A stretch of 64,000 nucleotides of DNA from a virus: positions 1 to 64,000 of IMG/VR virus record IMGVR_UViG_3300032156_000001; one strand, written 5' to 3'. The translations under genes and the position numbers were made by a program. Shown piece by piece: positions 8,003-42,149 of this stretch. The notes beneath the pieces are model-generated. The model did not search any database. It was not told the DNA's origin and worked only from the letters and a program-made list of their open reading frames with translations. Every line of letters starts with the position of its first letter. The first letter of the stretch is position 1.

Positions 8003-8976
8003 GTGGCAAAATGCGACAGCCGATCCAGTGGCGGCTGGTCAGGCCGCACGCGGAGCCCTATTTCGACCGCTTGCTGGCCGCTTTGAGGGAAAGCCGGGCC
8101 ATGAGGCTCGACCTGCCCTCTGGAAGGCACGCCCGGAGGCCGCGGAGGGCCCTGCAACGATGTTTTCGGGCCTGGGTGGCGTCCAAGTACCCCCCGGGCA
8201 TTTCAGGGGCTTGGCGGGCCTCCAATTGCGTGCCGGCGGCCGGGGAATGGGCGCTTGACGCCATACAGCCCGGCAGGGCCGGCAGGCCTTGCGAACTGAT
8301 CTATTGCCCATGGTGCTGGATACGCCAAAGCCGAAGGCTGGAACGCATGATGATAGAGAACCCTACGGCTGTACATGCGCTGTACTGGGATAGGCCCAGT
8401 CGGCGGGTGCGCGGGGCCGGGCTAGGAGAGCTGGTGGACGTAACGGCCATAGAGACCGAGGACAACCTCTTGGGGGTTCCCCTGGCGCTGGCGCGGGCGA
8501 CGTTCGACGATTTCATGCGGCGCTGCCGCGACGCCGTCCGGCACGGACTGAGAGTCAAGCAGGGCGTGGCCGTTGCCACCGGCTGCCGCGACTTTCAGCG
8601 AGCCGTGAGGTTCACCAGTCTAGTTACCCGGTCGACCGGTGACGTCAGGCTCAGGACGAGCTACGTCTATCCTGCCGGCAGCCCGGCGAACAGCGAGCCG
8701 CCGATAAGCCTGGTCGGCGAGACCGCCTCTGGGACGCTGATGATGACCCGGCGCAAGGAGCTTAATCTGCCTGAGGCGATCATGATGGCCCTGCCGTTTC
8801 CCGGGCACGTGTTCGATATGGACCCGGCGGTTGTCGATTGCCTAGTCCGGCTGTCTAAGGGCAAGAGGAGCTACGGACTGATCGGTTTTGGAAAATTAGG
8901 TAATTATGAGTCCGTGCACGTAGGGCAAAACGATGATATAGATCGTCATAACCCCAAACGCCCTCTCTCTCTTTAG
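7999..8976 (+). CDS. hypothetical protein ending inside the cruciform element
   Basis: 325-aa ORF with CxxxxCPWC motif. Confidence 0.55.
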   Translation: MSGKMRQPIQWRLVRPHAEPYFDRLLAALRESRAMRLDLPSGRHARRPRRALQRCFRAWVASKYPPGISGAWRASNCVPAAGEWALDAIQPGRAGRPCELIYCPWCWIRQSRRLERMMIENPTAVHALYWDRPSRRVRGAGLGELVDVTAIETEDNLLGVPLALARATFDDFMRRCRDAVRHGLRVKQGVAVATGCRDFQRAVRFTSLVTRSTGDVRLRTSYVYPAGSPANSEPPISLVGETASGTLMMTRRKELNLPEAIMMALPFPGHVFDMDPAVVDCLVRLSKGKRSYGLIGFGKLGNYESVHVGQNDDIDRHNPKRPLSL

Positions 8977-9033
8977 AGAGAGAGTTAACGCACAATTATA
9001 TGACCGTTAACTCTCTCTCTTACAGAGAGAGAG
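8963..9033. repeat. nested (CT)n/(AG)n inverted-repeat (cruciform) element, possible origin
   Basis: CTCTCTCTCT-TT-AGAGAGAGAG; 16-bp perfect IR AGAGAGAGAGTTAACG/CGTTAACTCTCTCTCT around a 14-nt AT-rich spacer; second hairpin CTCTCTCTCT-TAC-AGAGAGAGAG. Confidence 0.8.
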
Positions 9034-9051
9034 AGAGGGAGGAACAGCTTA

Positions 9052-10173
9052 ATGGGTTCCCCAGACCAAAGGAGGAGCACTAGCGTGTTGGCATTTGTCT
9101 CAGATACCCACTTGCGTTACTGCCTCTTCAAGTATCTTCCTGATCTTCACGGAGACAGCGTCGACAGCCTGCATTTCATCGTCGAGACGATACTGGCCCG
9201 GAAGGCCTCCGTGGTCCTGTTCGGCGGAGACGTCTTCGACGGCGGGAATCCGGATCCGGATGTAGTCCAGATCTTCCTCGACGAGATGCGCCTGCTTGAG
9301 ACTGCCGGGATCAAGTGTCTGTCTATCCAGGGGCAACATGACAAGCTCGGCGGGCAGCCCTGGTACAATCTGGACAGGCACGTCTGGGACCTGGCGGCCA
9401 TGACCGGCGACCTGACCGGCGGGAAACTTTCCAAGCCTTTGGAAACCCCGCCCTTCGTGGTCGCGGGCTTCAACGCCTGCGGCCCGAGCGAGTTAAGGAC
9501 GAGGTTGGAGGTCCTGGATCCTTCCGTCAACGTCCTGGTCCTCCATCAGACGCTGAAGGGCTCCATGCCGGAGATAGTCGGCAAGGAGAACTGGGATCTC
9601 GACCCCGCTTGGGTCAAGCCGTCGGTGCGGCTGGTCCTGCTGGGCCACGTCCACAAGCCCTACGAGGCCGTCGTCGGTCAGACCAAGTATGTCTACGGCG
9701 GCAGCACGGTGCTGTGCGCCATCGACGAGCCGCCGGCCAAGTCGTTCCTGCTCGTGCATGACGACTTCAAATTGGAACATGTCCCGATTCCGACCCGGCC
9801 GCTGCTGGCCGTCCGGGTGGAGGCGCCGGAACAGCTCGCGACGGTGGTGGACGCCGTCAAGGCGGCCGCGCCGGGGACGCTGGTGGTCGTGCGGTTCAGC
9901 CCCGCCGTGCCGGACGTTGAGGCGCGGCTGCGGGGGGCCAACGACAAGTGCGCGTTCACGTTCAGGCTGACCGTGCCGGAGGCCGCCGAGGCCCGGACGG
10001 TCCTCGCTTCCGCCGCCGCGTCCCTCGAGAGCTGCCTCGGCCAGCTCGTGGACAGGGCAAAGGAGCCGGAGCTGTACGGCCTGCTCCTGGCGGCGCTGAA
10101 CGCGCAGAACCCGAAGGAGGCATTGGCCGGGTTCAAGAAGCGGTTCCTGGAGCCGCAGAAGGAGGCCGTGTGA
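9052..10173 (+). CDS. sbcD: Mre11/SbcD-like metallophosphoesterase nuclease
   Basis: SDTHL, GGDVFD, GQHD, LHQ, LGHVH motifs; Rad50/SbcC nearby. Confidence 0.88.
   Translation: MGSPDQRRSTSVLAFVSDTHLRYCLFKYLPDLHGDSVDSLHFIVETILARKASVVLFGGDVFDGGNPDPDVVQIFLDEMRLLETAGIKCLSIQGQHDKLGGQPWYNLDRHVWDLAAMTGDLTGGKLSKPLETPPFVVAGFNACGPSELRTRLEVLDPSVNVLVLHQTLKGSMPEIVGKENWDLDPAWVKPSVRLVLLGHVHKPYEAVVGQTKYVYGGSTVLCAIDEPPAKSFLLVHDDFKLEHVPIPTRPLLAVRVEAPEQLATVVDAVKAAAPGTLVVVRFSPAVPDVEARLRGANDKCAFTFRLTVPEAAEARTVLASAAASLESCLGQLVDRAKEPELYGLLLAALNAQNPKEALAGFKKRFLEPQKEAV
9428..9445. promoter_or_regulatory. palindrome TTTCCAA-GCCT-TTGGAAA, intragenic copy
   Basis: Same arms as the intergenic copies, inside the sbcD-like CDS. 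Confidence 0.5.
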
Positions 10174-11578: not shown

Positions 11579-11633
11579 GCTTGGAGCTTCCCTGGCGGAA
11601 GCCGAAGCCCTGCGCTTAGGGATGGGAGGACGG

Positions 11634-13739
11634 ATGTACGTCGAGAAGGTGACGCTCAACAACTTCTGCCAGCACGAGAAGCTGGAGGCGACGTTCGGGC
11701 CCGGGGTCATCGGAATCATCGGGCCCAACGGCGCCGGCAAGTCCAACCTGATCCACGGGCTGCTGTTCGGCTTTACCGGCTACACGAACGGCAAGAAGGC
11801 CGACGAGATCGCGCACGGCGCCGACGACGGCACCGCCGAGGTCGAGTTCATGGCCGGCGGGACGAAGGGCGTCATCAAGCGGGCGCTCAAGACCTCCCGC
11901 TGCCTGCTGAGGATCGGCGAGGCCAGGTTCGGGAGCGCCACCGAGGTCGACAGGGCCATGGAGCCGGTCATCGGCGACGCGGCCGTCCTGATGAACCTCA
12001 TCTTCGCGCGGCAGGGCGCCATAGAGGGCGTCCTGTTCCTGCGCCCCTCCGACAGGGCCAGGCAGTTCCAGGCCCTGTTCGGCACGCAGAACGCCGAGCT
12101 GATCCGGCAGCTGTTCTACGATGAGCTGAGCGCGATACCGGCGGCGCCGAACGAGGCGGTCATCAAGGAGCTGGAGGACGACAAGGCGAACGTGGCGGCC
12201 AGCCTCCTGGAGAAGGAGCGCGAGCTGCCCGCCGCCGCGGCCGGCAGGCTGGGCGCCGACGAGCAGGCGTCGTTCAACCGCGTCATACGCGCCCACGACG
12301 AGCAGGCGGCCAACGAGGCTGCCTATGCCGCCGCTAAGCTGGAGCGCGACACATTGGGAGCGCGGCTTCGCGAGACCCGGCACTTGGCAAAGGAATATGG
12401 CGACACGGTCGACAGCATCAATGCGGCGATAGCCTCGCTCCAGCCCGTGGCGGAGCGCGCGTCGGCGGAACTGGCCGCCGCGGGCGCCGCGGTCGAGCAC
12501 AACGCCAGGCTGGCCGGGCTGCGGGCCGACAAGGCGCGCTGGGACGAGGTGCGCAGGGCGCCGGAGCCCGTCTGCCCCGGCGCCCTGAACAACGTCCCGA
12601 TGCTGAAAGCCAAGCTCGAGATAGCGCGCGTGGAGTGCGTGACCAGCCGGCGGGTAGTGGAGGCCGGGAAGCAGCACAAGGGCGGCAAGTGCCCGACCTG
12701 CAACCAGCCGCTGACCGCCGAGCATGTGGCCGAGCACGCCGCGCGCAGGGCGAAATGGGAGCCCGAACTGGTTCAGCTGGAGAGCATCGTCGCCGGATAC
12801 GAGGCCCTGGCCGTCGAGCACGCCGCGGACAAGCAGACGTGGGACGCGGGACAGCGGACCGCCGGGACGGAACTGGCGCGCATCGAGAAGGCGCTGCAGG
12901 ACGCCGGGCCGGACAGGCCGGTGCCCAGCGGCGCGCGCAAGGCCGAGATGGAGAAGCTGGTCGGCGATTACGGTCTGAACAAAACCCGGCTGCATGCGGC
13001 ATCCACGAACCTGGCTGCTGCACAGGCGACAGCTACCCAACTGCAGCTTGGATGGGACGCGGTCGTCAAGCGCGTCGAGGACTGCGAGCAGCGGCTGCCG
13101 AAGCGCCCGGTCACGAAGGACGAACGCGACGTGGCCGCGAAGCTGATCGAGGGCCACACGGAGGCCATGATGAGGTTCGCCACGGTGAGCGCCCAGATGC
13201 AGTCGCTCACCGAGCGGCAGGCGGAGCTGGGCCGCCGCATAGAGGCCGCGAAGGCCCTGGCCGGCCGGTACGAGCGGCTGAAGGCGTGGCGGCAGCTGCT
13301 GGAGCGCGGCAGGCTCATCCTGCACCGCGACCAGCTGCCGAACCTGGTGGCGCGGTCGTACCTGGTCGCGCTGAATGCCCAACTGGCCCGGTATCTGGAG
13401 ATGTTCGACTCGCCGTTCGGGGCCAGGGTCCTGGACGACCTGTCGATCGAATGCCGGTTCGTCGACAAGCTCATGCCGGCGGAGCGGCTCAGCGGCGGCG
13501 AGAAGGTGGTCCTCGGGATCGCCTTCAGGTTCGTCGTCTACGCCCTGTTCGCGTCGGACCTCGGCATGCTAGTCCTGGACGAGCCGACCGTGTTTCTCGA
13601 CGACGGCAGGATAGACAGCCTGTGCGCGGTCCTGGAAAAGGTGAGGGGATACTCGCGCCAGGCCGGCCTTCAGGTTATCCTTATCACGCACGAGGATCGC
13701 CTGGCGGCGGTCTGCGACCGCGTGATTCGGCTGGGATAG
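11634..13739 (+). CDS. sbcC: Rad50/SbcC-like SMC ATPase
   Basis: GPNGAGKS Walker A, coiled coil with CPTC zinc hook, LSGGE signature, VLDEPT Walker B, ITHE. Confidence 0.92.
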   Translation: MYVEKVTLNNFCQHEKLEATFGPGVIGIIGPNGAGKSNLIHGLLFGFTGYTNGKKADEIAHGADDGTAEVEFMAGGTKGVIKRALKTSRCLLRIGEARFGSATEVDRAMEPVIGDAAVLMNLIFARQGAIEGVLFLRPSDRARQFQALFGTQNAELIRQLFYDELSAIPAAPNEAVIKELEDDKANVAASLLEKERELPAAAAGRLGADEQASFNRVIRAHDEQAANEAAYAAAKLERDTLGARLRETRHLAKEYGDTVDSINAAIASLQPVAERASAELAAAGAAVEHNARLAGLRADKARWDEVRRAPEPVCPGALNNVPMLKAKLEIARVECVTSRRVVEAGKQHKGGKCPTCNQPLTAEHVAEHAARRAKWEPELVQLESIVAGYEALAVEHAADKQTWDAGQRTAGTELARIEKALQDAGPDRPVPSGARKAEMEKLVGDYGLNKTRLHAASTNLAAAQATATQLQLGWDAVVKRVEDCEQRLPKRPVTKDERDVAAKLIEGHTEAMMRFATVSAQMQSLTERQAELGRRIEAAKALAGRYERLKAWRQLLERGRLILHRDQLPNLVARSYLVALNAQLARYLEMFDSPFGARVLDDLSIECRFVDKLMPAERLSGGEKVVLGIAFRFVVYALFASDLGMLVLDEPTVFLDDGRIDSLCAVLEKVRGYSRQAGLQVILITHEDRLAAVCDRVIRLG

Positions 13740-13768
13740 GAGAATCGATGGCGAAAAGGAGAGGATCG

Positions 13769-14098
13769 ATGAGAACGAAGCTGTGCTTGGCCGCGTCCGC
13801 GGCGCTTCTCTGCCTGTGCGGATGCGACTCGTGGGTGTCGGGCGCGGGCGTGGTCTATACCATGCCCGACGATGAGGGCAGCGTGTCGGCGAACGTCCAG
13901 TTCGGCCACGTGACCAAGGTCCTCACTATCTCGGCTGAGGCGCTGGCGGAGGCCCCCGTGGCGACGTCGCAAAAGCCGGCCCCCGGGTCGAAGGCGATCA
14001 ATACCAAGGAACTCGCCGAGAAGGCGGTCGCCGCCGCGAAGACCAGGCGGATGAAGAAGATGGCGGCCCCCGCTCCGGCGACTGACCCGGCCAAGTGA
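13769..14098 (+). CDS. putative lipoprotein
   Basis: Basic N-terminus, hydrophobic stretch, LCGC lipobox-like motif. Confidence 0.5.
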   Translation: MRTKLCLAASAALLCLCGCDSWVSGAGVVYTMPDDEGSVSANVQFGHVTKVLTISAEALAEAPVATSQKPAPGSKAINTKELAEKAVAAAKTRRMKKMAAPAPATDPAK

Positions 14099-14108
14099 GC
14101 GCCGACCA

Positions 14109-14555
14109 TTGGAAGTCGTAGCCAGGCTGCGGTTCGTGACGGCATGCCTCGGCGGCGTCCGCAAGGAAGAAAAGGACCTGATGCTCCGGGATCCCGGGGG
14201 TCAGGTCATTTTTCTCCAAAGCTGGTGGACAGCCTCCTTCCGGCAGGCCGCCCAGGGCCTCAACCGGCATTTCAGGGAGGCGCCGAGGATACTCGCAGTG
14301 CCGACGGTCGATGGGCCGCTCGGCACGTTCAGAAGGCACTACTCGAAGGACGGATTCAAGGACCACGAGGCGTACCCGCCTAACGCGCAAGTGACCGTGC
14401 GGTTCTGCCTGCCCGTCAGCCTGTCGGTCGCCGACTTCGCGGCGCTGCTCAATTTCGTGGGCGACTACGTCGGCATCAGCCCGTACGGGCACCGCGACGG
14501 GTTCGGCCGCTTCAAGGTGGAGTCGGTCGAATCGGCGGCAAAGAGCGGAGGATAA
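14109..14555 (+). CDS. standalone RAMP-superfamily (Cas7/Csm3-like) protein
   Basis: N-terminal LRFVTACLGG strand, RDPGGQVIFLQSWWTASFRQAA helix, HEAYPPNAQVTVRF, C-terminal G-rich loop VGDYVGISPYGHRDGFGRFKV; TTG start. Confidence 0.68.
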   Translation: MEVVARLRFVTACLGGVRKEEKDLMLRDPGGQVIFLQSWWTASFRQAAQGLNRHFREAPRILAVPTVDGPLGTFRRHYSKDGFKDHEAYPPNAQVTVRFCLPVSLSVADFAALLNFVGDYVGISPYGHRDGFGRFKVESVESAAKSGG

Positions 14556-14567
14556 CCGGAGATTGAG

Positions 14568-14783
14568 ATGAATTATCAGATGAGAATCTTGAAGGCCTCT
14601 CGGCAGCTGTTGCGCGCCGAGTGGCGCGGGGAGGTGTTCCCTGTGGAAGTGCGGCACGATGATGAGTGCGCGGCCCTGAAGGGGGGCGAGTGCAACTACA
14701 ACCCGGACATCGTAATGAAGACCCCTACCGGGACATTCGAGGTCGATCGGAACGGGTGCGCTCATCTTGTTCCTGCGAACTGA
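14568..14783 (+). CDS. hypothetical protein
   Basis: 71-aa ORF. Confidence 0.55.
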   Translation: MNYQMRILKASRQLLRAEWRGEVFPVEVRHDDECAALKGGECNYNPDIVMKTPTGTFEVDRNGCAHLVPAN

Positions 14784-14798: not shown

Positions 14799-16238
14799 AT
14801 GCAAGTCACCCTGACCCGGATCGGGAATCTCGTTATCGTGGAGCCGCCGTGCTCCGACCTGCTGGAGCGCCATCTCGTGTTCCAGAAGCGCATCCAGCAG
14901 GGCGGCAGCGCCCGCGACGTGGCGTGGCAGACCGTGTGCCTGTACCGCATAGAGGGGAACCGGCTGTTCGCGCCGGCGGGCCTCACGAGGCGGCTCTACG
15001 ACGTCCTGAAAGAGGCCGGCCACGACATCAAGTTCGTGGATCAGCGCGAGCGCAACCTGCCCGACCCGGACCTGACCCTGCTCGATCCGTTGCGGGAGGG
15101 CCAGGACGAGGTGATCGCGGCCATCGTGGCGTTCGACCGCGGCATCATTGAAGCCCCGACCGCGTTCGGAAAATCATTTCTTCTTCGACAGATATGCAAG
15201 ATCTGGCCGACGGCCAACGTCATCATCTGCTCGCCGTTCCGCGGCATCCTGGTGGACACCATGGCGGCGCTGCGCGAGCTGTTCCCGCCCAGCCAGATCG
15301 GGCTGTGCGGACTGGGCCATCAGGAGGCCGACCGGCGGATCACGGTGACGACCGACAGAAGCCTGCGCGCCTGCGACCTGGCGAGATGCCAGGTCTTCAT
15401 CTTCGACGAGGTCCACCGGGCGGCCGCGCCGTGCACCGCGGAGGCCATCGCGCAGATAGCCAATGCGCGCATGTACGGCTTCTCGGCCTCGCCGTACGGC
15501 CGCAGCGACCAGGCGGACCTGGAGACCGAGGCCATGTTCGGCCCGTCCATCTGCAAGATGGGCTACGCCGACGCGGAGAAGTCCGGCAGCGTCGTGCCGG
15601 TGCGGGTGTTCCTGCTGGACTGCTCGCCGGTGGCGGACCCCGGCGTCACGAGCGACAACACGACGGTCCTGGAGCGCTGGGCGCTGTGGCGCAACAAGGA
15701 CCGCAACAACCTCATCATGCGCGCCGTGAAGCACGCCTACGCCGCGTACGGCCCCGACACGCAGATCCTGATAGCGACGGCCAAGGTGGAGCACTCGGTC
15801 CATCTGTTTAAGGCCGCCGTGGATGCCGGCTACCCCGACTTCCAGCTGGTGTACGGCAGCATGGACCTCGAGAAGCGCGACGCCTGGGTCCACCAGAAGC
15901 TGATCCCCGAAGGCGTCCATCCGCTGGCCTCCCACATGCGCGATCAGCTGCAGTTCATGTTCAGGGACAGGAAGATCCTGCGGGCCATCGCGACGGGCGT
16001 GTGGGGCACGGGCGTCAACTTCCCGGGCCTGAACGTGCTGATCCGCGCGGACGGCCAGAGCGGGGATATCGCCAGCACGCAAATACCCGGCCGCGTGACG
16101 CGGACGGCGGAAGGCAAGGACGTCGGCATAGTGGTCGACCTGGACGACAGGTTCAACAGGAGCCTGCTGCGGCGCGCGCAGCAGCGGGTGCGCGTCTACA
16201 GGAAGAAGGGCTGGGAGATCGTGCCGTTGACGTTGTGA
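14799..16238 (+). CDS. superfamily 2 DNA helicase (UvsW/XPB-like)
   Basis: APTAFGKS, DEVH, SAS motif III, QIPGRVTR motif VI. Confidence 0.88.
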   Translation: MQVTLTRIGNLVIVEPPCSDLLERHLVFQKRIQQGGSARDVAWQTVCLYRIEGNRLFAPAGLTRRLYDVLKEAGHDIKFVDQRERNLPDPDLTLLDPLREGQDEVIAAIVAFDRGIIEAPTAFGKSFLLRQICKIWPTANVIICSPFRGILVDTMAALRELFPPSQIGLCGLGHQEADRRITVTTDRSLRACDLARCQVFIFDEVHRAAAPCTAEAIAQIANARMYGFSASPYGRSDQADLETEAMFGPSICKMGYADAEKSGSVVPVRVFLLDCSPVADPGVTSDNTTVLERWALWRNKDRNNLIMRAVKHAYAAYGPDTQILIATAKVEHSVHLFKAAVDAGYPDFQLVYGSMDLEKRDAWVHQKLIPEGVHPLASHMRDQLQFMFRDRKILRAIATGVWGTGVNFPGLNVLIRADGQSGDIASTQIPGRVTRTAEGKDVGIVVDLDDRFNRSLLRRAQQRVRVYRKKGWEIVPLTL

Positions 16239-16256: not shown

Positions 16257-16823
16257 ATGGTGCCCGCCAGCCCGATGGATGTTGAGGAGTGCGCGCTGGC
16301 GCTCATCAAGGCCTACGACCAGCTGCGCAGGCGTATCGACCCGACGTTCACGTCGGCCAGCCGCCAGTACAGGACGTTCGAGACCGCGGCGGAGCGGTTG
16401 CTGGCCGGCGGCGGTGGCGACCCCTACGAATACGTCGGCTATGTGTTCCAGTGCTTCACCGGCAGGATACCGCATTGCGGCTATCTGGCATCGGTGAAGT
16501 TCATCGGCGCGTTCGTGAACGACAGGCCCGTGAGACTGAAGGAGCTGAAGCTGTTCGTGGAGCTGCAGCTGGACGACGTGAAGTTCAGGATGGGCCACGG
16601 TGAGAATCTCGAGAAAATCCTTACGGACCCGTTCGCCGGGTTCTCCCCCGTGTTGTGCTGGGCGATGGCGACCACCGCTATGGATGGTGCCCTCGCGAAA
16701 AGGTTCGAGAAGGAGGCGATGGTGCAGCTAAAGTTCGAGCCCGCTTACGGCGAACTGCTTAAGGGATGGCTTCCCCAGGACGCGGTCGAGCGGGCGCGCG
16801 CGGGCGGCGTGGAGAGAGGATAG
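16257..16823 (+). CDS. hypothetical protein upstream of the replicative helicase
   Basis: 188-aa ORF, SD AGGAGGAG. Confidence 0.7.
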   Translation: MVPASPMDVEECALALIKAYDQLRRRIDPTFTSASRQYRTFETAAERLLAGGGGDPYEYVGYVFQCFTGRIPHCGYLASVKFIGAFVNDRPVRLKELKLFVELQLDDVKFRMGHGENLEKILTDPFAGFSPVLCWAMATTAMDGALAKRFEKEAMVQLKFEPAYGELLKGWLPQDAVERARAGGVERG

Positions 16824-18296
16824 ATGGCGAGAGAAAGCCTGCTGCGCGACCTGACCGAGGTCGAGCTCGACTACATGGTCGCGCACATCCTCCGCTGCGC
16901 CGACGTCGCCAGGGAGGCCGCCAAGCGGCTGAGCCCGGACCTATTCGACGACGCGGCGCAACTGAGGCAGAAGCTGCTGTACTCCATCTTCCAGGAGTTC
17001 TGGGCACGGAACGGCAGCCTGCCGGACGGCGATTACATGCTGGTTCAGGTCAGCAAGAGGTCGGCGGACTCGTTGGTGACGGACGCGTTCACCCTGCGGC
17101 CGATCTACGACCTGATAACGAAGATCTACACTTGGAAGGACGGGGCCCTCCGCCCGGCGGAGGCGATCGACCTCATCAACCACTTCATCATGTACAGGAC
17201 CGTCGGCAAGAGGCTGACCCAGGCGGTCTCGCAGAGATTCCTCACCGACGAGCAGTGGGCGGAGCTGACTGCCGCGCGCGCCTCGCTGATTCCGCATGAG
17301 GCGCAGCTGGTGGACCCGTTCAAGACGCCGTGCGTCGGCAACGAGCCGCGCCGGCGCACCGGCATAACGTGGCTGGACGCGATGATGGGCGGCGGCTTCC
17401 TGCTCGGCGAGGCCTGCGGCTTCCTGGCGCCGACGGGCGGCGGCAAGACCACGATAGGTCACCAGATCACCGTCGAGGGCGCTAAGCACGGCAACAATGT
17501 CCTGTTCGTGACGTACGAGGCGTCGTGCACCGGCGTCTACAGCGGGACCTTCTTCGCGCCCGTGTACGCCTGCGCGACCCGCATCAGCCGCAACGTGTTC
17601 GTGGGCATACCCGCCGGCGGCGACTACGCCAAGGCCCTGTCGGCCGACCAGCTGGAGCGGTTCGAGGCGGCGCGGAAGCTCCTCCAGGAGCACGTCAAGT
17701 ACGCCGACCTGTCGACCGGTGCCGGCGCGTCCGGCGACTGCGTCGCCGAGCTGGAGCAGCTGATCCAGCAGTGCGAGACGGGCGGCATGCGCGCCGACAT
17801 CGTCATCGTCGACTGGTTCTGGAAGATGATCGAGCGCGGCTACGCGGCGCTGAAGCTGGAGTACGGCAAGCGGCTGGAGCCGCGCCAGTACGCCGGCGGG
17901 GTCCTGAACGACCTGAAGCGGCTGGCCCAGCGCCGGCGCTGCTTCCTGTGGATCAATCACCAGCTCGCGGCCGCCGTGGCCGAGGCCAACAAGTCCAAGC
18001 TGGCCGTGGAAAGCGCGATGGAGATCAAGAGCTTCCCGCAGACGCTGGACATGTGCTTCACGCTCACGAAGCCCAACGAGGGCTATGCCACGATATCGGC
18101 CGGCAAGGTGCGTTCCAACCGCATGTCCACCAGGGTGGTGAAGCTGGAGGGCGAATACTCCACGTTCATTTCGGCCGACACCTTCGTGCGCGGGAAGGAC
18201 GGGAAGTACGCCGACTCGCTGGACCAGGGGAAGGTCCCCGGCGCGACCAGCAAGGCCAGGGAGGCGCATGGCGTGTTCTATGCGGATAGCCGATGA
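16824..18296 (+). CDS. dnaB: DnaB-like replicative helicase
   Basis: LAPTGGGKTT Walker A, TYE, IVIVDW, WINHQL motifs; adjacent to primase. Confidence 0.82.
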   Translation: MARESLLRDLTEVELDYMVAHILRCADVAREAAKRLSPDLFDDAAQLRQKLLYSIFQEFWARNGSLPDGDYMLVQVSKRSADSLVTDAFTLRPIYDLITKIYTWKDGALRPAEAIDLINHFIMYRTVGKRLTQAVSQRFLTDEQWAELTAARASLIPHEAQLVDPFKTPCVGNEPRRRTGITWLDAMMGGGFLLGEACGFLAPTGGGKTTIGHQITVEGAKHGNNVLFVTYEASCTGVYSGTFFAPVYACATRISRNVFVGIPAGGDYAKALSADQLERFEAARKLLQEHVKYADLSTGAGASGDCVAELEQLIQQCETGGMRADIVIVDWFWKMIERGYAALKLEYGKRLEPRQYAGGVLNDLKRLAQRRRCFLWINHQLAAAVAEANKSKLAVESAMEIKSFPQTLDMCFTLTKPNEGYATISAGKVRSNRMSTRVVKLEGEYSTFISADTFVRGKDGKYADSLDQGKVPGATSKAREAHGVFYADSR

Positions 18297-19357
18297 CGGC
18301 CGTGCAAGAGACGGTCCTCAATCCCACCCTGTACGCCGTGCTGAAGGCGACGTTCGGGGAAGTGAGAGTGACCAACCAGGGGCAGCGGGCCGTGATACGG
18401 ACCCGGCCCGGCTTCACCGATCCGTCGAAGATGGAGCGGGTGGTCATAGATTCCGGCGAGGAATACCACGTCAACTGCCCGTTTTGCGGCGACCAGCGCG
18501 GCCGGCTGTACATCAACTACAGGTGGATGTCGGTGGAGGACACTGCCAATGTCCGCTACCTGGCGCGCGGCGAGAACGGCAGCATGGCCAATCGGTACTT
18601 GGCGCATTGCTTCAACGAGGAGTGCGACCTGTCCCAGCTGGCCGACCTTCTGAAGCCGTACGTGGCCAGGAGGATGAAGATCGTGATGCCGACGGAAGAG
18701 AAGGTCACCGACAAGCTGTTCGTCGAGACGGGGCTGCCCGAGCAGAGCGTCCCCCTGACCAGCCTGCCGCCCGACCATCCCGCCATTCAGTACGTGAAGG
18801 GCCGCAACTTCGACCCGGCCGAGCTGCACGCGAAGTGGCACATCCACTTCTGTTCCTGGGATGTGAACGAGCTGGTGTCGAACCGGCTGATCTTCCCGGT
18901 CTACTGGACCGGCAAGCAGGTGGGTTGGCAGGCGAGGAGCATACACCCCAACCCCAGCGTGAAGTATTACACGATGCCCGGGCTCAACAAGAACTTTCTC
19001 CTGTACAACGGGGAACGGGCAAGGAACTACCCGTGCGGGATCCTGGTCGAGGGCGTCTTCGACTGCTTCAGAGTCGGCGAGATGGCTATCGCGCCGCTGG
19101 GCACGTCGCTCAGCGCGACGCAGCGGGACCTGATAACCAAGTTCTGGGGGGACAGGGCGTTCGGCATCATGCTCGACGCCGACGCGGAGAAAAAGGTGGA
19201 GAAGCTGAAGTGGATTTTCCAAACAGGAGCGTTCAAGCAGGGACTTTTCACCGTGAGGCTTCCGGGCGGCAAGGATCCGGCTGATCTAGCACGCGATGAA
19301 CTGTGGCAGATCATACTGGGCGAAGCGCGGCGGCAGGGAGTCAACCTCGGAGGTTAG
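18293..19357 (+). CDS. dnaG: DNA primase (Zn finger plus TOPRIM)
   Basis: CPFCGD...HCFNEEC, ILVEGVFD, LDAD. Confidence 0.85.
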   Translation: MTAVQETVLNPTLYAVLKATFGEVRVTNQGQRAVIRTRPGFTDPSKMERVVIDSGEEYHVNCPFCGDQRGRLYINYRWMSVEDTANVRYLARGENGSMANRYLAHCFNEECDLSQLADLLKPYVARRMKIVMPTEEKVTDKLFVETGLPEQSVPLTSLPPDHPAIQYVKGRNFDPAELHAKWHIHFCSWDVNELVSNRLIFPVYWTGKQVGWQARSIHPNPSVKYYTMPGLNKNFLLYNGERARNYPCGILVEGVFDCFRVGEMAIAPLGTSLSATQRDLITKFWGDRAFGIMLDADAEKKVEKLKWIFQTGAFKQGLFTVRLPGGKDPADLARDELWQIILGEARRQGVNLGG

Positions 19358-22300
19358 ATGGCTGAACAGCCGGTCAATACCCCGGCAGTTACCGACAGCG
19401 AGATCTTTCAGTACATGGACCGCGTCGTGGCGCCGTTGGCGCCGCTCACAGAGATGTACGGGCGGGGGATGAAGCTCTACAACCTGCCCGCGCCGGAGGA
19501 CGTGGCGAAGCTGGCGCTCTTCGCGCCGACGCTGCTGCCCGTGTACGAGAAGGGCAGCCCCGACGGCAGGCAGGTGTGGTTCGTGCCTTCCACGGTCTTC
19601 GACAGCAACGAGCGCGGCCCGCGCAGGAAGCACAGGGTCATGATCATCGGCAAGGTCCTCGGGAAGGACGAGGAAGCCAGGTGCGCCAACTTCATAGGCC
19701 CGTCGGGCGACCTCATCAAGAGCGTCGCCAGCGAGATAAAGCTGAACATGTCCGACTTCTACGTCGGAAACGTGGTCAGGTTCCTGCCGCCCGACGGCGG
19801 CAAGACTCTGCACCGCCTCCACATCGCGGACTGCATGCCGCTACTGCTCCGCGACATCCTGATGGTCGAGCCGGAATGGCTGCTCCTCATGGGCGCCGAC
19901 GCGGTTCGCGCCGTCTTCGGCAAGGCGTCGCTGGAGGCCGTGCGCTCCAGCGTGTTCTACTTCGAGAACGGCGTACACCAGCTCGGGTCCGGCAAGCTGC
20001 CGCCCCGGCTGGACGACGAGGCGGCGCTCGTGAAGCCGGCGAAGGGATTCAAGGTCTTCGCGACGACGCACCCCGTGCGGGTACTGCGCGAGTCCGGCTT
20101 CCTGGAGGGCTTCCGCGCCGACATGATAAAGTTCCAGAGGCTGCTGTGCGGAGGGGCCTCGCCGGTGGTCGCCAAGCCGGTCGATTACCAGTTCACGGCG
20201 AACCTGGACGGCGTCAAGCGATACGTTGATATGTACCGCCCCGTCGCCGGCCCTTTTGAGGTGGCTGTCGACTGCGAGTGGGGCGGGGATCCGCAGGGCG
20301 ACGGCGAGCTTCGGACGGTCCAGCTGTGCATGAGGGAACGCACGGCGGTCGTGCTCAGCTTGTGCGAGCCCGGCGGCATCCGCCTTCACAAGGAGAAGGA
20401 GCGCGGGGAGATCTTCGAGTATCTCCGCGTCCTGCTGACCGATCCCCTGTGCAGGATCATAGGCCACAACTTCCGCGCCGACGCCAAGTGGTTGGCGTCG
20501 CGGGGCCTGGACGTCGTCGAGCACCTGTCGTTCGACACGATGCTTGCCGACCACGTCCTCAACGAGAACTCCGAGCACGGCCTGGAGGCCTGCGCGGTCC
20601 GCTACACCGACATGGGCAGGTACGACTACAACCTGGCCCAGTGGATCAAGGCCAACGGCAACAAGAAGGAGCGCGGGTATCTCGACGTGCCCGACGACAT
20701 CCTGCTGCCGTACGCCGCCAAGGACGCCGACTGCACGCTCAGGGTCAAGAGCGCCCTGGCGCTGCAGCTGGACGACCCCAACAACGCGCCGCTGAAGCGG
20801 CTCTTCCACGAGATCGTGATGCCGTGCAACCTCCCGATCCACGAGATCGAGATGTCGGGCATCCTTGCCGACCGCAACCGCATGGTCGGGATGACGGACG
20901 CCTACGCGGCCAAGCGCGAGGAGATACAGAACGACATCCGGCTCAAGCTGGGCATGCCCGAGTTCAACGCGCGCAGCACGCAGCAGCTGCAGAAGCTGCT
21001 GTTCGGGCCGCCCGTCAACGGCGGCCTCGGCCTGTCTCCGCTCAAGACGACCGGCAAGCCGGCCAAGATGTGGGACGAGATCCCCGTCAACGAGCGCAGC
21101 CGCCACAGCGCGTCGGTGGACATGGAGAGCGTCGAGGCGCTCGCCTCGGCCCATCCCATCGCCGACAGGATCCGCGACTTCAAGATCGTGGACCAGGTCA
21201 TAAAGAACTTCCTGTGCCCGAAGACGGAAGCGGGCGACCAGGAGGACGACTACGAGAAGGGCCTGATCTCCTGCATAGCCCCGGACGGCAGGATCAGGAC
21301 CACGATCTCGCAGATGAGCGAGACCGGCCGCCACAAGAGCAGCCGGCCCAACTGCTTCGTTGCCGGCACCGAGTACCTGATCAAGCGCGGGTGGATGCTG
21401 CTGGACGAGACGAACGACAGCGACGAATTCGCCCAGATGGACACCGAAGACCGCCTGATCACCTTCGAGAAGCCGCTGGCGAAGACGTGGTTTCGCTACA
21501 AGGGCGACATCGTCACGCTGCGCAGCCGCTACGTGGACCTGGCCATGACGACCGACCACGTGTGCCTGTACTGGGACGGCCGCGGATTCCCGGGAGCCTA
21601 CTGCAGGAGGATGGCGATAGAATCGCCGCACTCCTTGAAGGCGGTACATGCCGGGCGGAGGCCGGAAGGGGAGTACCTGAACGACCTCCAGTCCGTGCTG
21701 GTTGCCATGATGGTCCTGCACGGCGGCATAATGGAAAGCGGCAGGATGCCCATCGCGGACCTGACGCCGGCGCGGGCCGCGTGGGTCCTCGAGGGACTGA
21801 AGCACTACGGCTTCGAGCACGACGGCTATTACAGCGAGGGCCGCAGGCACGCGGTGTGGATCACCGTCCCCAAGCCGCTGAGGCAGATGACGTCGCTGGG
21901 CCCGTGGATCTTCTTCCTAGCCGGCGAGTCGTGCGGCAACCTCGCGAAGGCGTTCGAGCGCTGGCAGGCGCAGACGGGCAAATTGACGTTCCCAAGCCCC
22001 TCCCAGCTTGACTGGTTCCAGGCGCTGATGGCCATGTCGGGATACCGGACAGCCCCGTGCGGCGAGCTTCAGCTGCCGTCGACGGCGCGCGCGGGGGGCG
22101 GCTACGTCAGCTCGCTGAGGCACGCGAAGCACAAGATCGAGAAGTACGACGGCTGGGTCGGCTGCGTCCGCATGCCGAAGGGCACGGTCGTCGTGAGGCA
22201 CAAGGGCAAGGTGTGCATCACGGGCCAGTGCCAGAACCTGCCGAAGAGGCGCGACGAGGACCAGGTCAGGATCATGGGCGCGGGCACGCCGAAGCTGCGG

Positions 22301-23245
22301 TCGTGCTTCACTATCCCGGATGGTAACGTCCTCATAGAGGCCGACTACAAGTCGGCGGAGATATTCACGCTGGGCCGGCTGTCGCGCTGCCAGAAGCTGG
22401 TCAGCGACGCCCGCACGGACATCCATGCCCGCGGCGCGGTCACGCGCTTCGGCGCGCCGAAATGGGACGGCTTCGACGCGAACAAATTGCCCCCGAAGGA
22501 ATGGAAGGAAGACACGCACAACAAGACGCTGCGAATCTGCAGCAAGACAGTGGTGTTTGGGATTCCGTACCAAAGAGGTGCCGCGGCGATAGCCCGCGAG
22601 ATAGTGAAAGCCACGAAAGGCCAGGTGGCCTGCACGAAAGAGAAAGCCCAGGGCTTCATAGACGGGTTCTACGATGATTACCAGGAGACCAGGGAGTACG
22701 TCGAGCTGTGCTACCGGTCGGTCCTGGTGCCCGGGTACATCACGAACGCGCAGGGGCGGCGGAGGAGGTTCTACGCCTCCGGCGCCACCGAGCGGTCCGT
22801 GCTGGCCGCGTTCCAGCGGGAGGCGACGAACTTTCCAATACAGTCCTCGGTGGCCGACACGCTCAACAACGCGCTTATCAACCTGTACCACTGGCGCCGG
22901 CTGAACCCCGGGGAGGCGACCTACAAGATCCTCCTGGCGGTCCACGACGCCATACTGATCGAGACGCCTGGCGAGTGCGCCCGCGTCGTGATAGAACGCG
23001 TGCTCCCTGAGTGCATGTCGCGGGGGGCTGTCATCCCGTCCTGGAAACCGGTGGTGCCGCACATGAAGCCGGACCCGGAGGGGAACGAGGTTGAGGACCT
23101 GCTCGGGCACATCAAGGAATGGGTGACCGAGCCGTTCACGCTCGACATAGACGTTGAGCTGGGCACTCGTTGGGGCGAGCCCGCCACGCCGGAGGACCTG
23201 AAGGCCCGCGGCGTGCCGGACGACATCATAGAGAAGTACGTCTAG
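19358..23245 (+). CDS. polA: family A DNA polymerase with N-terminal UDG family-4-like domain, 3'-5' exonuclease and intein
   Basis: UDG-like FIGPSG, YVGNVV, THPVRVLR; exonuclease VDCE, GHNFRAD, YAAKDAD; polymerase DYKSAE, KTVVFGIPY, NFPIQS, VHDA. Confidence 0.9.
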   Translation: MAEQPVNTPAVTDSEIFQYMDRVVAPLAPLTEMYGRGMKLYNLPAPEDVAKLALFAPTLLPVYEKGSPDGRQVWFVPSTVFDSNERGPRRKHRVMIIGKVLGKDEEARCANFIGPSGDLIKSVASEIKLNMSDFYVGNVVRFLPPDGGKTLHRLHIADCMPLLLRDILMVEPEWLLLMGADAVRAVFGKASLEAVRSSVFYFENGVHQLGSGKLPPRLDDEAALVKPAKGFKVFATTHPVRVLRESGFLEGFRADMIKFQRLLCGGASPVVAKPVDYQFTANLDGVKRYVDMYRPVAGPFEVAVDCEWGGDPQGDGELRTVQLCMRERTAVVLSLCEPGGIRLHKEKERGEIFEYLRVLLTDPLCRIIGHNFRADAKWLASRGLDVVEHLSFDTMLADHVLNENSEHGLEACAVRYTDMGRYDYNLAQWIKANGNKKERGYLDVPDDILLPYAAKDADCTLRVKSALALQLDDPNNAPLKRLFHEIVMPCNLPIHEIEMSGILADRNRMVGMTDAYAAKREEIQNDIRLKLGMPEFNARSTQQLQKLLFGPPVNGGLGLSPLKTTGKPAKMWDEIPVNERSRHSASVDMESVEALASAHPIADRIRDFKIVDQVIKNFLCPKTEAGDQEDDYEKGLISCIAPDGRIRTTISQMSETGRHKSSRPNCFVAGTEYLIKRGWMLLDETNDSDEFAQMDTEDRLITFEKPLAKTWFRYKGDIVTLRSRYVDLAMTTDHVCLYWDGRGFPGAYCRRMAIESPHSLKAVHAGRRPEGEYLNDLQSVLVAMMVLHGGIMESGRMPIADLTPARAAWVLEGLKHYGFEHDGYYSEGRRHAVWITVPKPLRQMTSLGPWIFFLAGESCGNLAKAFERWQAQTGKLTFPSPSQLDWFQALMAMSGYRTAPCGELQLPSTARAGGGYVSSLRHAKHKIEKYDGWVGCVRMPKGTVVVRHKGKVCITGQCQNLPKRRDEDQVRIMGAGTPKLRSCFTIPDGNVLIEADYKSAEIFTLGRLSRCQKLVSDARTDIHARGAVTRFGAPKWDGFDANKLPPKEWKEDTHNKTLRICSKTVVFGIPYQRGAAAIAREIVKATKGQVACTKEKAQGFIDGFYDDYQETREYVELCYRSVLVPGYITNAQGRRRRFYASGATERSVLAAFQREATNFPIQSSVADTLNNALINLYHWRRLNPGEATYKILLAVHDAILIETPGECARVVIERVLPECMSRGAVIPSWKPVVPHMKPDPEGNEVEDLLGHIKEWVTEPFTLDIDVELGTRWGEPATPEDLKARGVPDDIIEKYV
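21353..22228 (+). mobile_element. intein (292 aa) in PolA with degenerate LAGLIDADG-like insert
   Basis: Interrupts SRPN|CQNLP; begins CFVAGTEYL, ends VVRHKGKVCITGQ, followed by Cys+1. Confidence 0.85.
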
Positions 23246-23254
23246 GAGGGCACG

Positions 23255-24724
23255 ATGGGTTACAGGGAAAGGCTGGCGGTAGGGCAGGCGCAGGATCGGG
23301 CGGCGAAGCAGTTCAGCCTGAACTACATCACGAAGCCTGGCGCGATCCACCAGGTGTACTTCGGCGGCATGAAGGGGCCGACCATCTTCCGCATCTTCCC
23401 CGAGATGAGGAACGGCGTCGAGCTCCCCTTCCGCAACAGCGACGGGCTCAACGACTTCTCCGAGTGGATAGTCGCTGAGCGCATGGTCCGCGGGGCCGGC
23501 GCGCTGGGCAGGAAGTTCAACGCGCTGACGCGGGTCAAGGGGGTCCTGGATACGTCGTTCGGCCCCCTCGAGACGTTCCTGTCGGACCTCCGCAGGGTGC
23601 TGCGGACGCCGGGCGCCAACCCGGACATCCCGCAGGAGTGGTACAACTGGGTACGCCAGCAGAACCAGGGGCAGCAGCGGCAGGGCTTCGGCGATATCGT
23701 CCCCGCCGTGTCGATGTGCGGGTTCGTCCAGGCCGCGATCTTCGCGGTCAACAACAGGTACTTCATGGACGAGCACAGGCAGTGGAAGCCGACGATGCAG
23801 GGCGTCGTCGCGCTGATGCCGACCGCGCGCGAGTCGCTGGAGGAGATCGGCAACACCGAGAACAGGGAGTACAAGGGCGGCGATCCGAAGGACTATACCA
23901 ACCGGTACGTCCTCGGGCCGTACATCTCGCTGACGGTCGGCGGCCTGATCCAGCTGAACCTGGTGCCGCCGTCCGGCAAGAGCATCACGCACTACGAGGT
24001 CCAGCTGACCACCAATGCGTTCCCGGTCGGCGCCCAGGCCGCCGCCGTCTACTGGCAGCCGTGGGACGACCTGTTCTGGTTCATGACCGAGGAGGAGCAG
24101 CTGAAGCTCCTGGCGGACAATTACCCGCCGGAGGCGGTGGACTACGTGTTCGGCAGCGTCAAGCGCTACGCCGACAAGCTGCCGCAGGGCGTGCACGGCA
24201 AGTGGAGCGAGCTGACCCGCAAGCGGGTGTCCGCGTCGATGGGCGCGGGCGCGCAGCTGCCGATACCGGCGGGATTCCAGCCGCAGCAGCAGCCGACGCC
24301 GATCCCGAGCGCGGCACTGCCGCAGATGCCGGCCCAGAGGCCGGTCCAGGCAGCGGCGCCGCAGGCGCCGGCGACCTCCCCGCCGGGCATAGTCCCCGGA
24401 GTCGCCCTCCAGCCGTCGGGCACGACGGAAGAGGACGGCGGCGACGAGCCGGTCGCTATGGACACGGTGGAGCTTCAGAAGCAGATCCACCTGAATGAGG
24501 CAAGGAAGACGTCGGCGGAGCAGCCGATACCTCCGGCCGGAGCCGCCATAGACCCGTTCAAGCCGATCGTGGGATCGGTCCTGCCGGGCGCGGCAACGCC
24601 GCCCGCGAGCGCCGACCCGTCGATGGCCGACGCCTCGCTGGAGCGCGCGCGCAGGCAGCTGGCGGACGCGCAGAACGCCATGAAGAAGCCGACGGGCCCG
24701 GTACAGCCGCCGCCGGCGCAATAG
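23255..24724 (+). CDS. putative ssDNA-binding/recombination protein with Pro/Ala/Gln-rich tail
   Basis: Lies between polA and recA; IFRIFP motif reminiscent of gp32-type SSBs; function inferred only. Confidence 0.4.
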   Translation: MGYRERLAVGQAQDRAAKQFSLNYITKPGAIHQVYFGGMKGPTIFRIFPEMRNGVELPFRNSDGLNDFSEWIVAERMVRGAGALGRKFNALTRVKGVLDTSFGPLETFLSDLRRVLRTPGANPDIPQEWYNWVRQQNQGQQRQGFGDIVPAVSMCGFVQAAIFAVNNRYFMDEHRQWKPTMQGVVALMPTARESLEEIGNTENREYKGGDPKDYTNRYVLGPYISLTVGGLIQLNLVPPSGKSITHYEVQLTTNAFPVGAQAAAVYWQPWDDLFWFMTEEEQLKLLADNYPPEAVDYVFGSVKRYADKLPQGVHGKWSELTRKRVSASMGAGAQLPIPAGFQPQQQPTPIPSAALPQMPAQRPVQAAAPQAPATSPPGIVPGVALQPSGTTEEDGGDEPVAMDTVELQKQIHLNEARKTSAEQPIPPAGAAIDPFKPIVGSVLPGAATPPASADPSMADASLERARRQLADAQNAMKKPTGPVQPPPAQ

Positions 24725-41685: not shown

Positions 41686-41757
41686 CCTTTTTTTTCGCTT
41701 GCTGTTGGCAGGGCGGAGCCGGGCCGGCGCCATGATGGCGCGCCGGCTCCGCAACAT

Positions 41758-42122
41758 GGGGGCGATCATAGAATCGACCCGACGTGAATGGGAGGAGTCG
41801 CGCGCCGAGGTGGCTCGGAGGCCTCGTTAAACACCGGGCAATGCAAACGTGCCAAGAACGACAAGTTCGTTCGCGGGGGCTTCGGCCTCCGCGCTGCTGC
41901 CTAATCGAACAGCGGCTAACCCCGCTCGCGCGCCCGGCCCGGGCGCGCGGGAAGATGACGGGCTGCCGCCCAGCAAGCTGGGCTAGGTCGGTGTACAACC
42001 GATGGAGTCGTGGGAAGCGACACGAGAGGCTTGCCGGTGGGCCGGACACAGACCATCGGACACGCGCGTAGAGGCTCGACCTGAAGCGGACGGGGACCCG
42101 AGTGCGAGTCTCGGCGCCTCCA
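41758..42122 (+). ncRNA. ssrA: tmRNA (one-piece)
   Basis: GGGGGCG/CGCCTCC acceptor with G3-U70 and discriminator A; 5' GAATCGAC and GCGCGCCGAGG; 3' GGAC-CCGAG-TGCGAGT-CTCGG T-arm; 365 nt; tag ORF present. Confidence 0.92.
41851..41904 (+). other. tmRNA tag reading frame (A)AKNDKFVRGGFGLRAAA*; resume codon inferred
   Basis: GCC AAG AAC GAC...GCT GCT GCC TAA; ND near the start and AA at the end, as in known tags. Confidence 0.8.
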
Positions 42123-42149
42123 CAAATTTGTGCAGAATCGTAGGTGAAC

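Follow-up and report, generated by a model that had tools for sequence, protein, structure and literature searches.

The stretch of DNA analysed here, referred to as the window, comprises positions 1 to 64,000 of IMG/VR virus record IMGVR_UViG_3300032156_000001. This is a single virus record of 188,118 bp (G000 below), estimated to be 90% complete and with a GC content of 66%, of which the window is the first 64 kb. Between genes for an SbcC/Rad50-like ATPase and an XPB-like SF2 helicase lies a small gene whose product is predicted to be a minimal RAMP. We call it the mini-RAMP.

14109 to 14555, plus strand: mini-RAMP gene, 148 aa, TTG start (six-frame open reading frame (ORF) list; AlphaFold2 (AF2) model; Foldseek; hhalign)

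The gene is tightly packed, with junctions of 10 nt and 12 nt on either side, and its GC content at third codon positions (GC3) is 0.83. The public gene call, P0001, is a protein of 139 aa that begins at a GTG nine codons downstream of the TTG. The TTG is the better start call, since homologs with 45-49% identity keep residues 1-9 (MEVVA.LRF, strand beta-1). An earlier note on this DNA, made from the letters and ORF translations only, had read four RAMP motifs in this protein, and all four are found in the order that it gave: LRFVTACLGG (7-16), R27-D-x-x-G31-x-x-x-F35, E87-x-x-P-x-x-x-x-V-x-V-x-F99 and G118-x3-G122-I-S-P-x-G-x3-G-F-G-R-F135. A helix runs from residue 37, just after the second motif.

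The predicted architecture is a single RRM with a thumb hairpin at about residues 72-89 and a glycine-rich loop (G-loop) at 118-135. An AF2 model from four sequences reached a pLDDT of 65.6, and its structural matches were already RAMPs only; the model from a 118-sequence alignment has a pLDDT of 96.8 and a pTM of 0.90. Foldseek against the PDB gave 111 matches at E ≤ 1e-3, the top 50 being type VII Cas7, Csm3 or Cmr chains with a TMq of about 0.6, and the VIA matches of the model were all CRISPR RAMPs. Matches in the ESM Atlas were headed by three virus-only clusters (TM 0.87-0.91), followed by a PF03787 cluster (TM 0.73); a feature search of the Atlas was uninformative, its scores all lying below 0.9. 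As far as prediction can establish, the protein has the RAMP fold, with an RRM/ferredoxin-like palm, a thumb hairpin and a C-terminal glycine-rich loop, and by its model it is a structural homolog of Cas7, Csm3 and Cmr4. The minimal single-RRM RAMP with a G-loop that the earlier note had proposed is what both the AF2 model and Foldseek returned, rather than a fold of another kind. That the protein is instead a generic ferredoxin-like structural subunit and not a functional RAMP, its RAMP likeness being convergent or due to chance, seems to us scarcely credible.

Pfam, PHROG, PADLOC and NCBIfam hold no family for the window protein, the sole match being a sub-threshold one to DUF5818. A word-indexed search yielded three relatives only, and HMMER, run exhaustively over 1.84 billion representatives, yielded 287 homolog clusters (50% identity) at E ≤ 1e-3, 156 of them at E ≤ 1e-10, so that the family signal is far above chance. 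Among the 150 matches listed, nearly all are 110-260 aa long, with a few shorter fragments; fused or longer forms (455-2000 aa) did not turn up, which is weak evidence. Members are known from Logan, ENA and JGI metagenome sources only. Neither tblastn against 50,697 cultured phage records nor scans of 185,579 prokaryote genomes, the latter with narrow patterns, found a homolog. The family of the mini-RAMP is thus unannotated, and all its members known to date come from viral and metagenomic data.

The family is present as a single copy in the 188-kb genome. The earlier note had described a viral RAMP standing without CRISPR, with no cas genes or CRISPR array in the window, and this holds for the virus record as a whole: there is no PF03787 RAMP (the search gave nothing even at E ≤ 10), no Cas1, no CRISPR-like array and no cas operon anywhere in the genome. 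Compared with Csm3 and Cmr4 of type III, Cas7 of type VII and Csf2 of type IV systems, the mini-RAMP is about 50-150 residues shorter and has no extra domains. Moreover, unlike the CRISPR Cas7 group, it matches neither PF03787 nor a TIGR Cas7 model at their cut-offs and has no CRISPR array, cas1, cas2 or cas10 alongside. Weak matches to the Csf2 model TIGR03115 occur in 4 of the 118 family members, with a best E of 7.7e-4.

The position that the earlier note had assigned to the gene, between sbcC (one small gene away) and an SF2 helicase gene, is borne out by the ORF, Pfam and PHROG data, which add a 71-aa ORF (14568-14783) missing from its description. The surrounding genes are the following:

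9052 to 10173, plus strand: SbcD/Mre11-like phosphoesterase (Pfam Metallophos; PHROG 100)
11622 to 13739, plus strand: SbcC/Rad50-like ATPase (Pfam SMC_N, AAA_23 and Rad50 zinc hook; PHROG 77)
13748 to 14098, plus strand: ORF of 116 aa whose N-terminus resembles that of a lipoprotein; it fills the variable SbcC-RAMP slot (no family in Pfam or PHROG)
14568 to 14783, plus strand: 71-aa ORF between RAMP and helicase (weak phrog_1048 match, E 0.0026)
14799 to 16238, plus strand: XPB/Rad25-like SF2 helicase, 479 aa (Pfam ResIII, DEAD and Helicase_C; PHROG 16, DNA helicase)
16257 to 16823, plus strand: conserved 188-aa protein in the interval between the SF2 and DnaB-like helicases (no Pfam or PHROG match)
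16824 to 18296, plus strand: DnaB-like replicative helicase (PHROG 19; Pfam KaiC/ATPase)
18293 to 19357, plus strand: DNA primase (PHROG 47, E 4e-44)
19358 to 23245, plus strand: 1295-aa protein with uracil-DNA glycosylase domain, 3'-5' exonuclease and family A DNA polymerase (PolA) (PF03167, PF01612, PF00476)

A RecA/UvsX-like recombinase is encoded further downstream of the PolA gene. The gene that follows PolA (23255-24724; 489 aa) could not be assigned to a family.

Much of this arrangement is kept in relatives. The SF2 helicase, whose nearest PDB sequences are archaeal XPB/Rad25 (E 1e-6), has an ortholog directly downstream of the RAMP in 11 loci (the window, L001, L002, L004, L005, L009, L010, L011, L022, L023 and L026), among them contigs of 109 and 211 kb (L001 and L002) and 185 kb (L011), and in most of the 11 the helicase gene begins before the RAMP gene ends. 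Identity of the syntenic RAMPs to the window protein goes down to about 25-30%. The earlier note had associated the mini-RAMP with the adjacent helicase, and the neighbourhood survey strengthens this to a conserved, mostly overlapping adjacency. After the helicase, the relatives carry the DnaB-like helicase, primase and PolA, preceded by a small-protein slot; the slot of the 188-aa gene holds a gene of 185-246 aa in L001, L004, L011, L022 and L026, and two genes (118 and 121 aa) in L023. SbcD and SbcC lie upstream of the RAMP in most loci; in L026 neither is present in the 6 kb before it. What lies between SbcC and the RAMP varies (0-8 unrelated small genes, or tRNAs), and the 71-aa ORF is specific to this genome, being missing at that position in the other loci. 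Small proteins encoded upstream of the nearest cultured-phage helicase, that of Bacillus phage vB_BpsS-140, were considered as RAMP relatives and proved unrelated to the family.

Phage mimicry of Cas components is known, and a phage-encoded protein with a Cas7-like fold and no cas context could in principle be a decoy, a Cas7 mimic that poisons the assembly of a host class 1 effector or soaks up its crRNA. The earlier note had raised such an anti-CRISPR role. It is a poor fit with a core, syntenic replication-operon gene that keeps its place down to about 25% identity and is not a patchy accessory, and the protein is not close to any Cas7 in sequence (neither Pfam nor TIGR models match it), its nearest relative by sequence being the viral protein Vipr. 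We consider an anti-CRISPR decoy highly improbable.

Several features of the relatives deserve record. The partner helicase of two distant relatives carries an intein (Hint and homing endonuclease) right behind the Walker A GK (L009 1661-3274 and L010 1598-2821). One subclade has a RAMP-helicase unit with its own sigma-70-like promoter (TTGAC-N17-TATAAT/TATACT) and a leader of about 150 nt (L004 9815-10000 and L023 6809-7000); between these two loci the leader has diverged save for 19 nt, GTAGACGGTCAACCTRCTG, a possible operator or RNA element that the window lacks. A tRNA with anticodon CUA (amber-reading; tRNA-Pyl according to ARAGORN) occupies the SbcC-RAMP slot at L001 6899-6974 and L002 6743-6818, and suggests that those phages may suppress or recode TAG. 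Just before sbcD, at 8963-9037 of the window, there is a real inverted-repeat element, (CT)5/(AG)5 ... (CT)5/(AG)7; it was considered as a conserved partner site and discarded, being absent from all nine homolog loci checked.

The next comparison is with VIPR (Viral Interference Programmable Repeat) systems, on which we found the only relevant literature for such a RAMP lineage. Vipr of Escherichia phage SUSP1 (PDB 36pp) is a minimal RAMP encoded by the phage. It polymerises into a helical filament on vrRNAs of 9-16 YNNGG repeats, one protomer to each repeat, and reads dsDNA via the NN dinucleotides (bioRxiv 10.64898/2026.04.26.720920, 10.64898/2026.04.26.720927). VIPR systems include vap accessory genes and fall into seven types, all with pentanucleotide-type vrRNAs (tandem YNNGG, NNNGG, YNNNG or NNNNG repeats with a tail) beside vipr, and helicase or nuclease vap genes occur in types III-V (bioRxiv 10.64898/2026.04.26.720920, 10.64898/2026.04.26.720927). 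Simple repeat searches miss some vrRNAs because these are too degenerate, and alternative NNNNG repeats were found only by Evo2 scoring; the viral, array-guided Vipr was proposed in 2026 to predate CRISPR (bioRxiv 10.64898/2026.04.26.720920, 10.64898/2026.04.26.720927).

Searched against all PDB chain sequences, our family profile gave two matches up to E 10, the best of which was SUSP1 Vipr (36pp_D, E 0.038, in the G-loop half); the second was a ribosomal protein, and no CRISPR RAMP was among them. Alignment of the family with a Vipr alignment by hhalign gave a score of 94.4% at E 9.4e-8, over 48 C-terminal columns only (strand 3, helix 2, G-loop and strand 4). The closest solved protein by sequence is thus SUSP1 Vipr, a distant homolog with the detectable homology in the C-terminal half. 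The pre-CRISPR function floated in the earlier note agrees, in this respect, with the published VIPR proposal.

Both proteins are phage-encoded and small, with a single RRM, a thumb, a G-loop and no cas genes nearby. The glycines and the final phenylalanine of the loop align (G118/G170, G122/G174, G133/G183 and F135/F185, mini-RAMP before Vipr), both end this loop in GRF, and the aromatic character of Vipr W178 is kept in Y/F126. Near-invariant H86-E87 can be tentatively aligned with the base-contacting thumb residue R138 of Vipr, with E87 in its place. This homology is an argument that the mini-RAMP is a divergent VIPR-type, RNA-guided DNA binder, with a guide supplied in trans, non-pentameric or too degenerate to see, and with the SF2 helicase as a vap-like effector comparable to the Cascade-Cas3 and Csf-DinG pairs. 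The helicase and nuclease vap genes of types III-V and the NNNNG repeats seen by Evo2 only (bioRxiv 10.64898/2026.04.26.720920, 10.64898/2026.04.26.720927) point the same way, as do the abundant structured and array RNAs elsewhere in G000.

However, the residues with which Vipr recognises GGY are mostly not kept: D177 corresponds to P125 (proline in 108 of 118 sequences), R179 to position 127, which is G, R or K and mostly G, and H17 has no aligned equivalent. By sequence comparison, the set as a whole (H17, R138, D177, W178, R179) is not kept in the family. At 148 aa the mini-RAMP is also smaller than Vipr (195 aa), and the two proteins fail to align in their N-terminal halves. Furthermore, VIPR loci are compact vipr-vap units with long non-coding flanks, accessory and variable, whereas the mini-RAMP has tight intergenic flanks and is packed into an SbcCD-helicase-DnaB-primase-PolA operon in all loci seen, fixed in that core operon beside the XPB-like helicase.

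The earlier note had supposed an unidentified guide RNA, and we scanned both strands of the whole genome for one, in four ways: by looking for strict YNNGG runs, by counting YNNGG and NNNGG in windows, by looking for runs of G at a stride of five (NNNNG), and by a motif-free search for two or more conserved columns at any period from 4 to 12. No YNNGG, NNNGG or NNNNG array, and no array of period 4, 5, 7 or 8, rose above shuffled controls in the 188 kb of G000, and the period-6 and period-12 signals fall in coding repeats and in TIGR-like arrays. Stride-5 G runs of 11-12/12 do occur, all within genes and at the frequency seen in shuffled sequence, and were discarded as NNNNG guide arrays. In SUSP1, our positive control, all four vrRNAs come up in the motif-free scan at period 5, and most of them in the strict run scan; (YNNGG)6 with at most one mismatch occurs 23 times there, and not at all in G000 or in the related 185-kb genome G001. 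Five homolog loci with 4-10 kb flanks (L001, L002, L004, L005 and L011) likewise showed no array; L022, L023 and L026 lay outside the scans. Two near-complete genomes, five homolog loci and a working control therefore speak against a VIPR-like array, since no period-5 or other short-period array was seen outside coding repeats and the TIGR-like arrays. Nothing was found that links to the mini-RAMP gene the Y-like and tRNA-like RNAs of the window, which the earlier note had put forward as RNA partners. A divergent RNA-guided binder is, in our estimate, a possibility of some substance that nevertheless falls on the unlikely side. As for VIPR in the strict sense, the gene is not such a system as defined: it encodes a homologous minimal RAMP, and a pentanucleotide vrRNA array, the full set of GGY residues and the locus layout are absent. 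The family probably escaped the VIPR survey, which was based on NR, because its members are in metagenome sources only.

Large arrays of another kind are present in G000, at about 91,300-98,750 (27-35 kb past the end of the window). They consist of 36-nt units with an ATCGAG-type repeat, with 18 strict triple-unit matches (locus L012), and surround a 441-aa gene with an IS110-family Pfam match (PF02371), resembling a TIGR-Tas system. The earlier note had allowed that a cas operon and array elsewhere in the genome might account for the gene; the genome holds no cas operon or CRISPR array, but it does hold this separate TIGR-like array system. TIGR-Tas systems combine their arrays with Nop/IS110-like Tas proteins, whereas the mini-RAMP is not of the Nop fold and not beside 36-nt dual-spacer arrays, which lie 77 kb from its gene. 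G001, which carries the RAMP, has neither a homolog of the array-associated IS110-like protein nor arrays with that repeat motif, so no obligatory link between RAMP and TIGR-like arrays is seen. By BLASTP, the array-associated protein has no similarity to the genes of about 300 aa upstream of the RAMP in L022 and L001. In the window, the RAMP has no TasR-like gene on either side.

Three further observations concern the record itself. The first 139 bases of G000 (1-139) are repeated at 187,979-188,118, so the assembly, given as linear in IMG/VR, is probably either circular or redundant at its ends. A phage tmRNA with the tag peptide AKNDKFVRGGFGLRAAA lies at 41715-42125 of the window (ARAGORN; Rfam RF00023, 76 bits), within a long non-coding stretch. 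A canonical single-stranded DNA-binding protein (PF00436 was the one such family searched) was not found in G000.

Across the 118 sequences, the near-invariant residues are F9, L14 and G15 in beta-1, R27, F35, W39, W40 and A47 around the start of helix 1, R76, H86, E87 and G92 in the thumb, P102, and G118, G122, S124, P125, G133 and F135 in the G-loop. Cas7 and Vipr make their RNA contacts with beta-1, the start of helix 1, the thumb and the G-loop. Some RAMPs, among them Cas6, Csm3 and Cmr4, are metal-independent RNases, and archaeal XPB acts with a nuclease partner (Bax1). The conservation of H86 (114/118), E87 (117/118) and R76 (112/118) next to an XPB-like helicase could accordingly be read as the signature of a Cas6- or Csm3-like nuclease, with these invariant residues cutting RNA (primers, R-loop RNA or precursors of the TIGR-like arrays) and the helicase serving as motor. 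The position analogous to the catalytic Asp of Csm3 and Cmr4, in the beta1-alpha1 loop, is an Asp in the window protein (D23), yet in 33 of the 118 members only, so that it is not conserved in the family; the equivalence follows from motif order, with no superposition. A dedicated role in array processing is unlikely, since the RAMP-bearing G001 lacks both the TIGR-like arrays and their associated protein. A RAMP-fold nuclease is, all in all, a doubtful explanation.

What explanation, then, fits a RAMP in such a place? Because repeats of the guide-RNA kind were not found and the gene is fixed beside the helicase in a replication operon, the RAMP fold is probably used here in a non-programmable way. 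We tentatively favour, at a little short of an even chance, the reading that the mini-RAMP is a fixed gene of the replication/recombination operon whose product would be a non-programmable, single-stranded nucleic acid-binding cofactor of the XPB-like SF2 helicase. The parts of this proposal that concern fold, family and synteny are much firmer than the part that concerns function. We favour a strand-binding cofactor since the gene has the marks of a core replication/recombination component linked to the helicase, and not those of a variable interference module; the absence of a PF00436 match from G000 is in keeping with this.

A rough proposal can be made for how it might work. The mini-RAMP would be produced from an operon ordered as SbcD, SbcC, variable slot, RAMP, SF2 helicase, a protein of about 190 aa, DnaB-like helicase, primase and PolA. 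It would grip single-stranded nucleic acid in the canonical RAMP manner, by the face of its beta-sheet, the N-terminus of helix 1, the G-loop and the thumb. Candidate substrates are ssDNA, R-loop RNA or primer RNA. The gripped strand could then be held for, or presented to, the helicase during recombination-dependent replication or the handling of R-loops. Nucleic-acid binding, any polymerisation and the partnership with the helicase are inferred properties of the mini-RAMP.

Several points weigh against this proposal. The binding, oligomerisation and helicase contact that it ascribes to the protein derive from fold and synteny. Near-invariant H86-E87 and R76 could, judging by the alignment, mean base-specific recognition or catalysis rather than generic strand binding. 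Translational coupling of RAMP and helicase is not universal, as the 71-aa ORF intervenes here and a 135-nt gap separates the two genes in L022. Finally, there may be a cryptic or trans-encoded guide, given that the VIPR work describes helicase accessory genes in some types and some vrRNAs that needed Evo2.

A bolder version of the strand-binding proposal would see in the mini-RAMP a RAMP fold in housekeeping use, one that does not depend on programmable guides and possibly preceded them. Here it would coat R-loop RNA or ssDNA and recruit or load the XPB-like helicase, a prototype of the pairing of a RAMP filament with an SF2 helicase later seen in Cascade-Cas3 and Csf-DinG, and the family would stand beside Vipr as a third viral lineage with single-RRM RAMPs. 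We regard this version as unlikely on present evidence.

To our knowledge, RAMPs were long known solely as effector and processing subunits of CRISPR systems. What is new here is a Vipr/Cas7-like RAMP lineage that apparently comes without a guide array, sits in a replication operon and is smaller than Vipr. As a family in the core operon of a large clade of uncultured phages, beside an XPB-like helicase, it would constitute a further RAMP lineage. Should the mini-RAMP turn out to be a programmable protein with a cryptic guide, VIPR-like recognition would be extended to a new RNA code. If, on the other hand, it binds strands in a non-programmable way, as we tentatively favour, it would show the job of the RAMP fold without guides, and would be a candidate for what RAMPs originally did and for how the RAMPs of type I and type IV CRISPR systems came to work with helicases.
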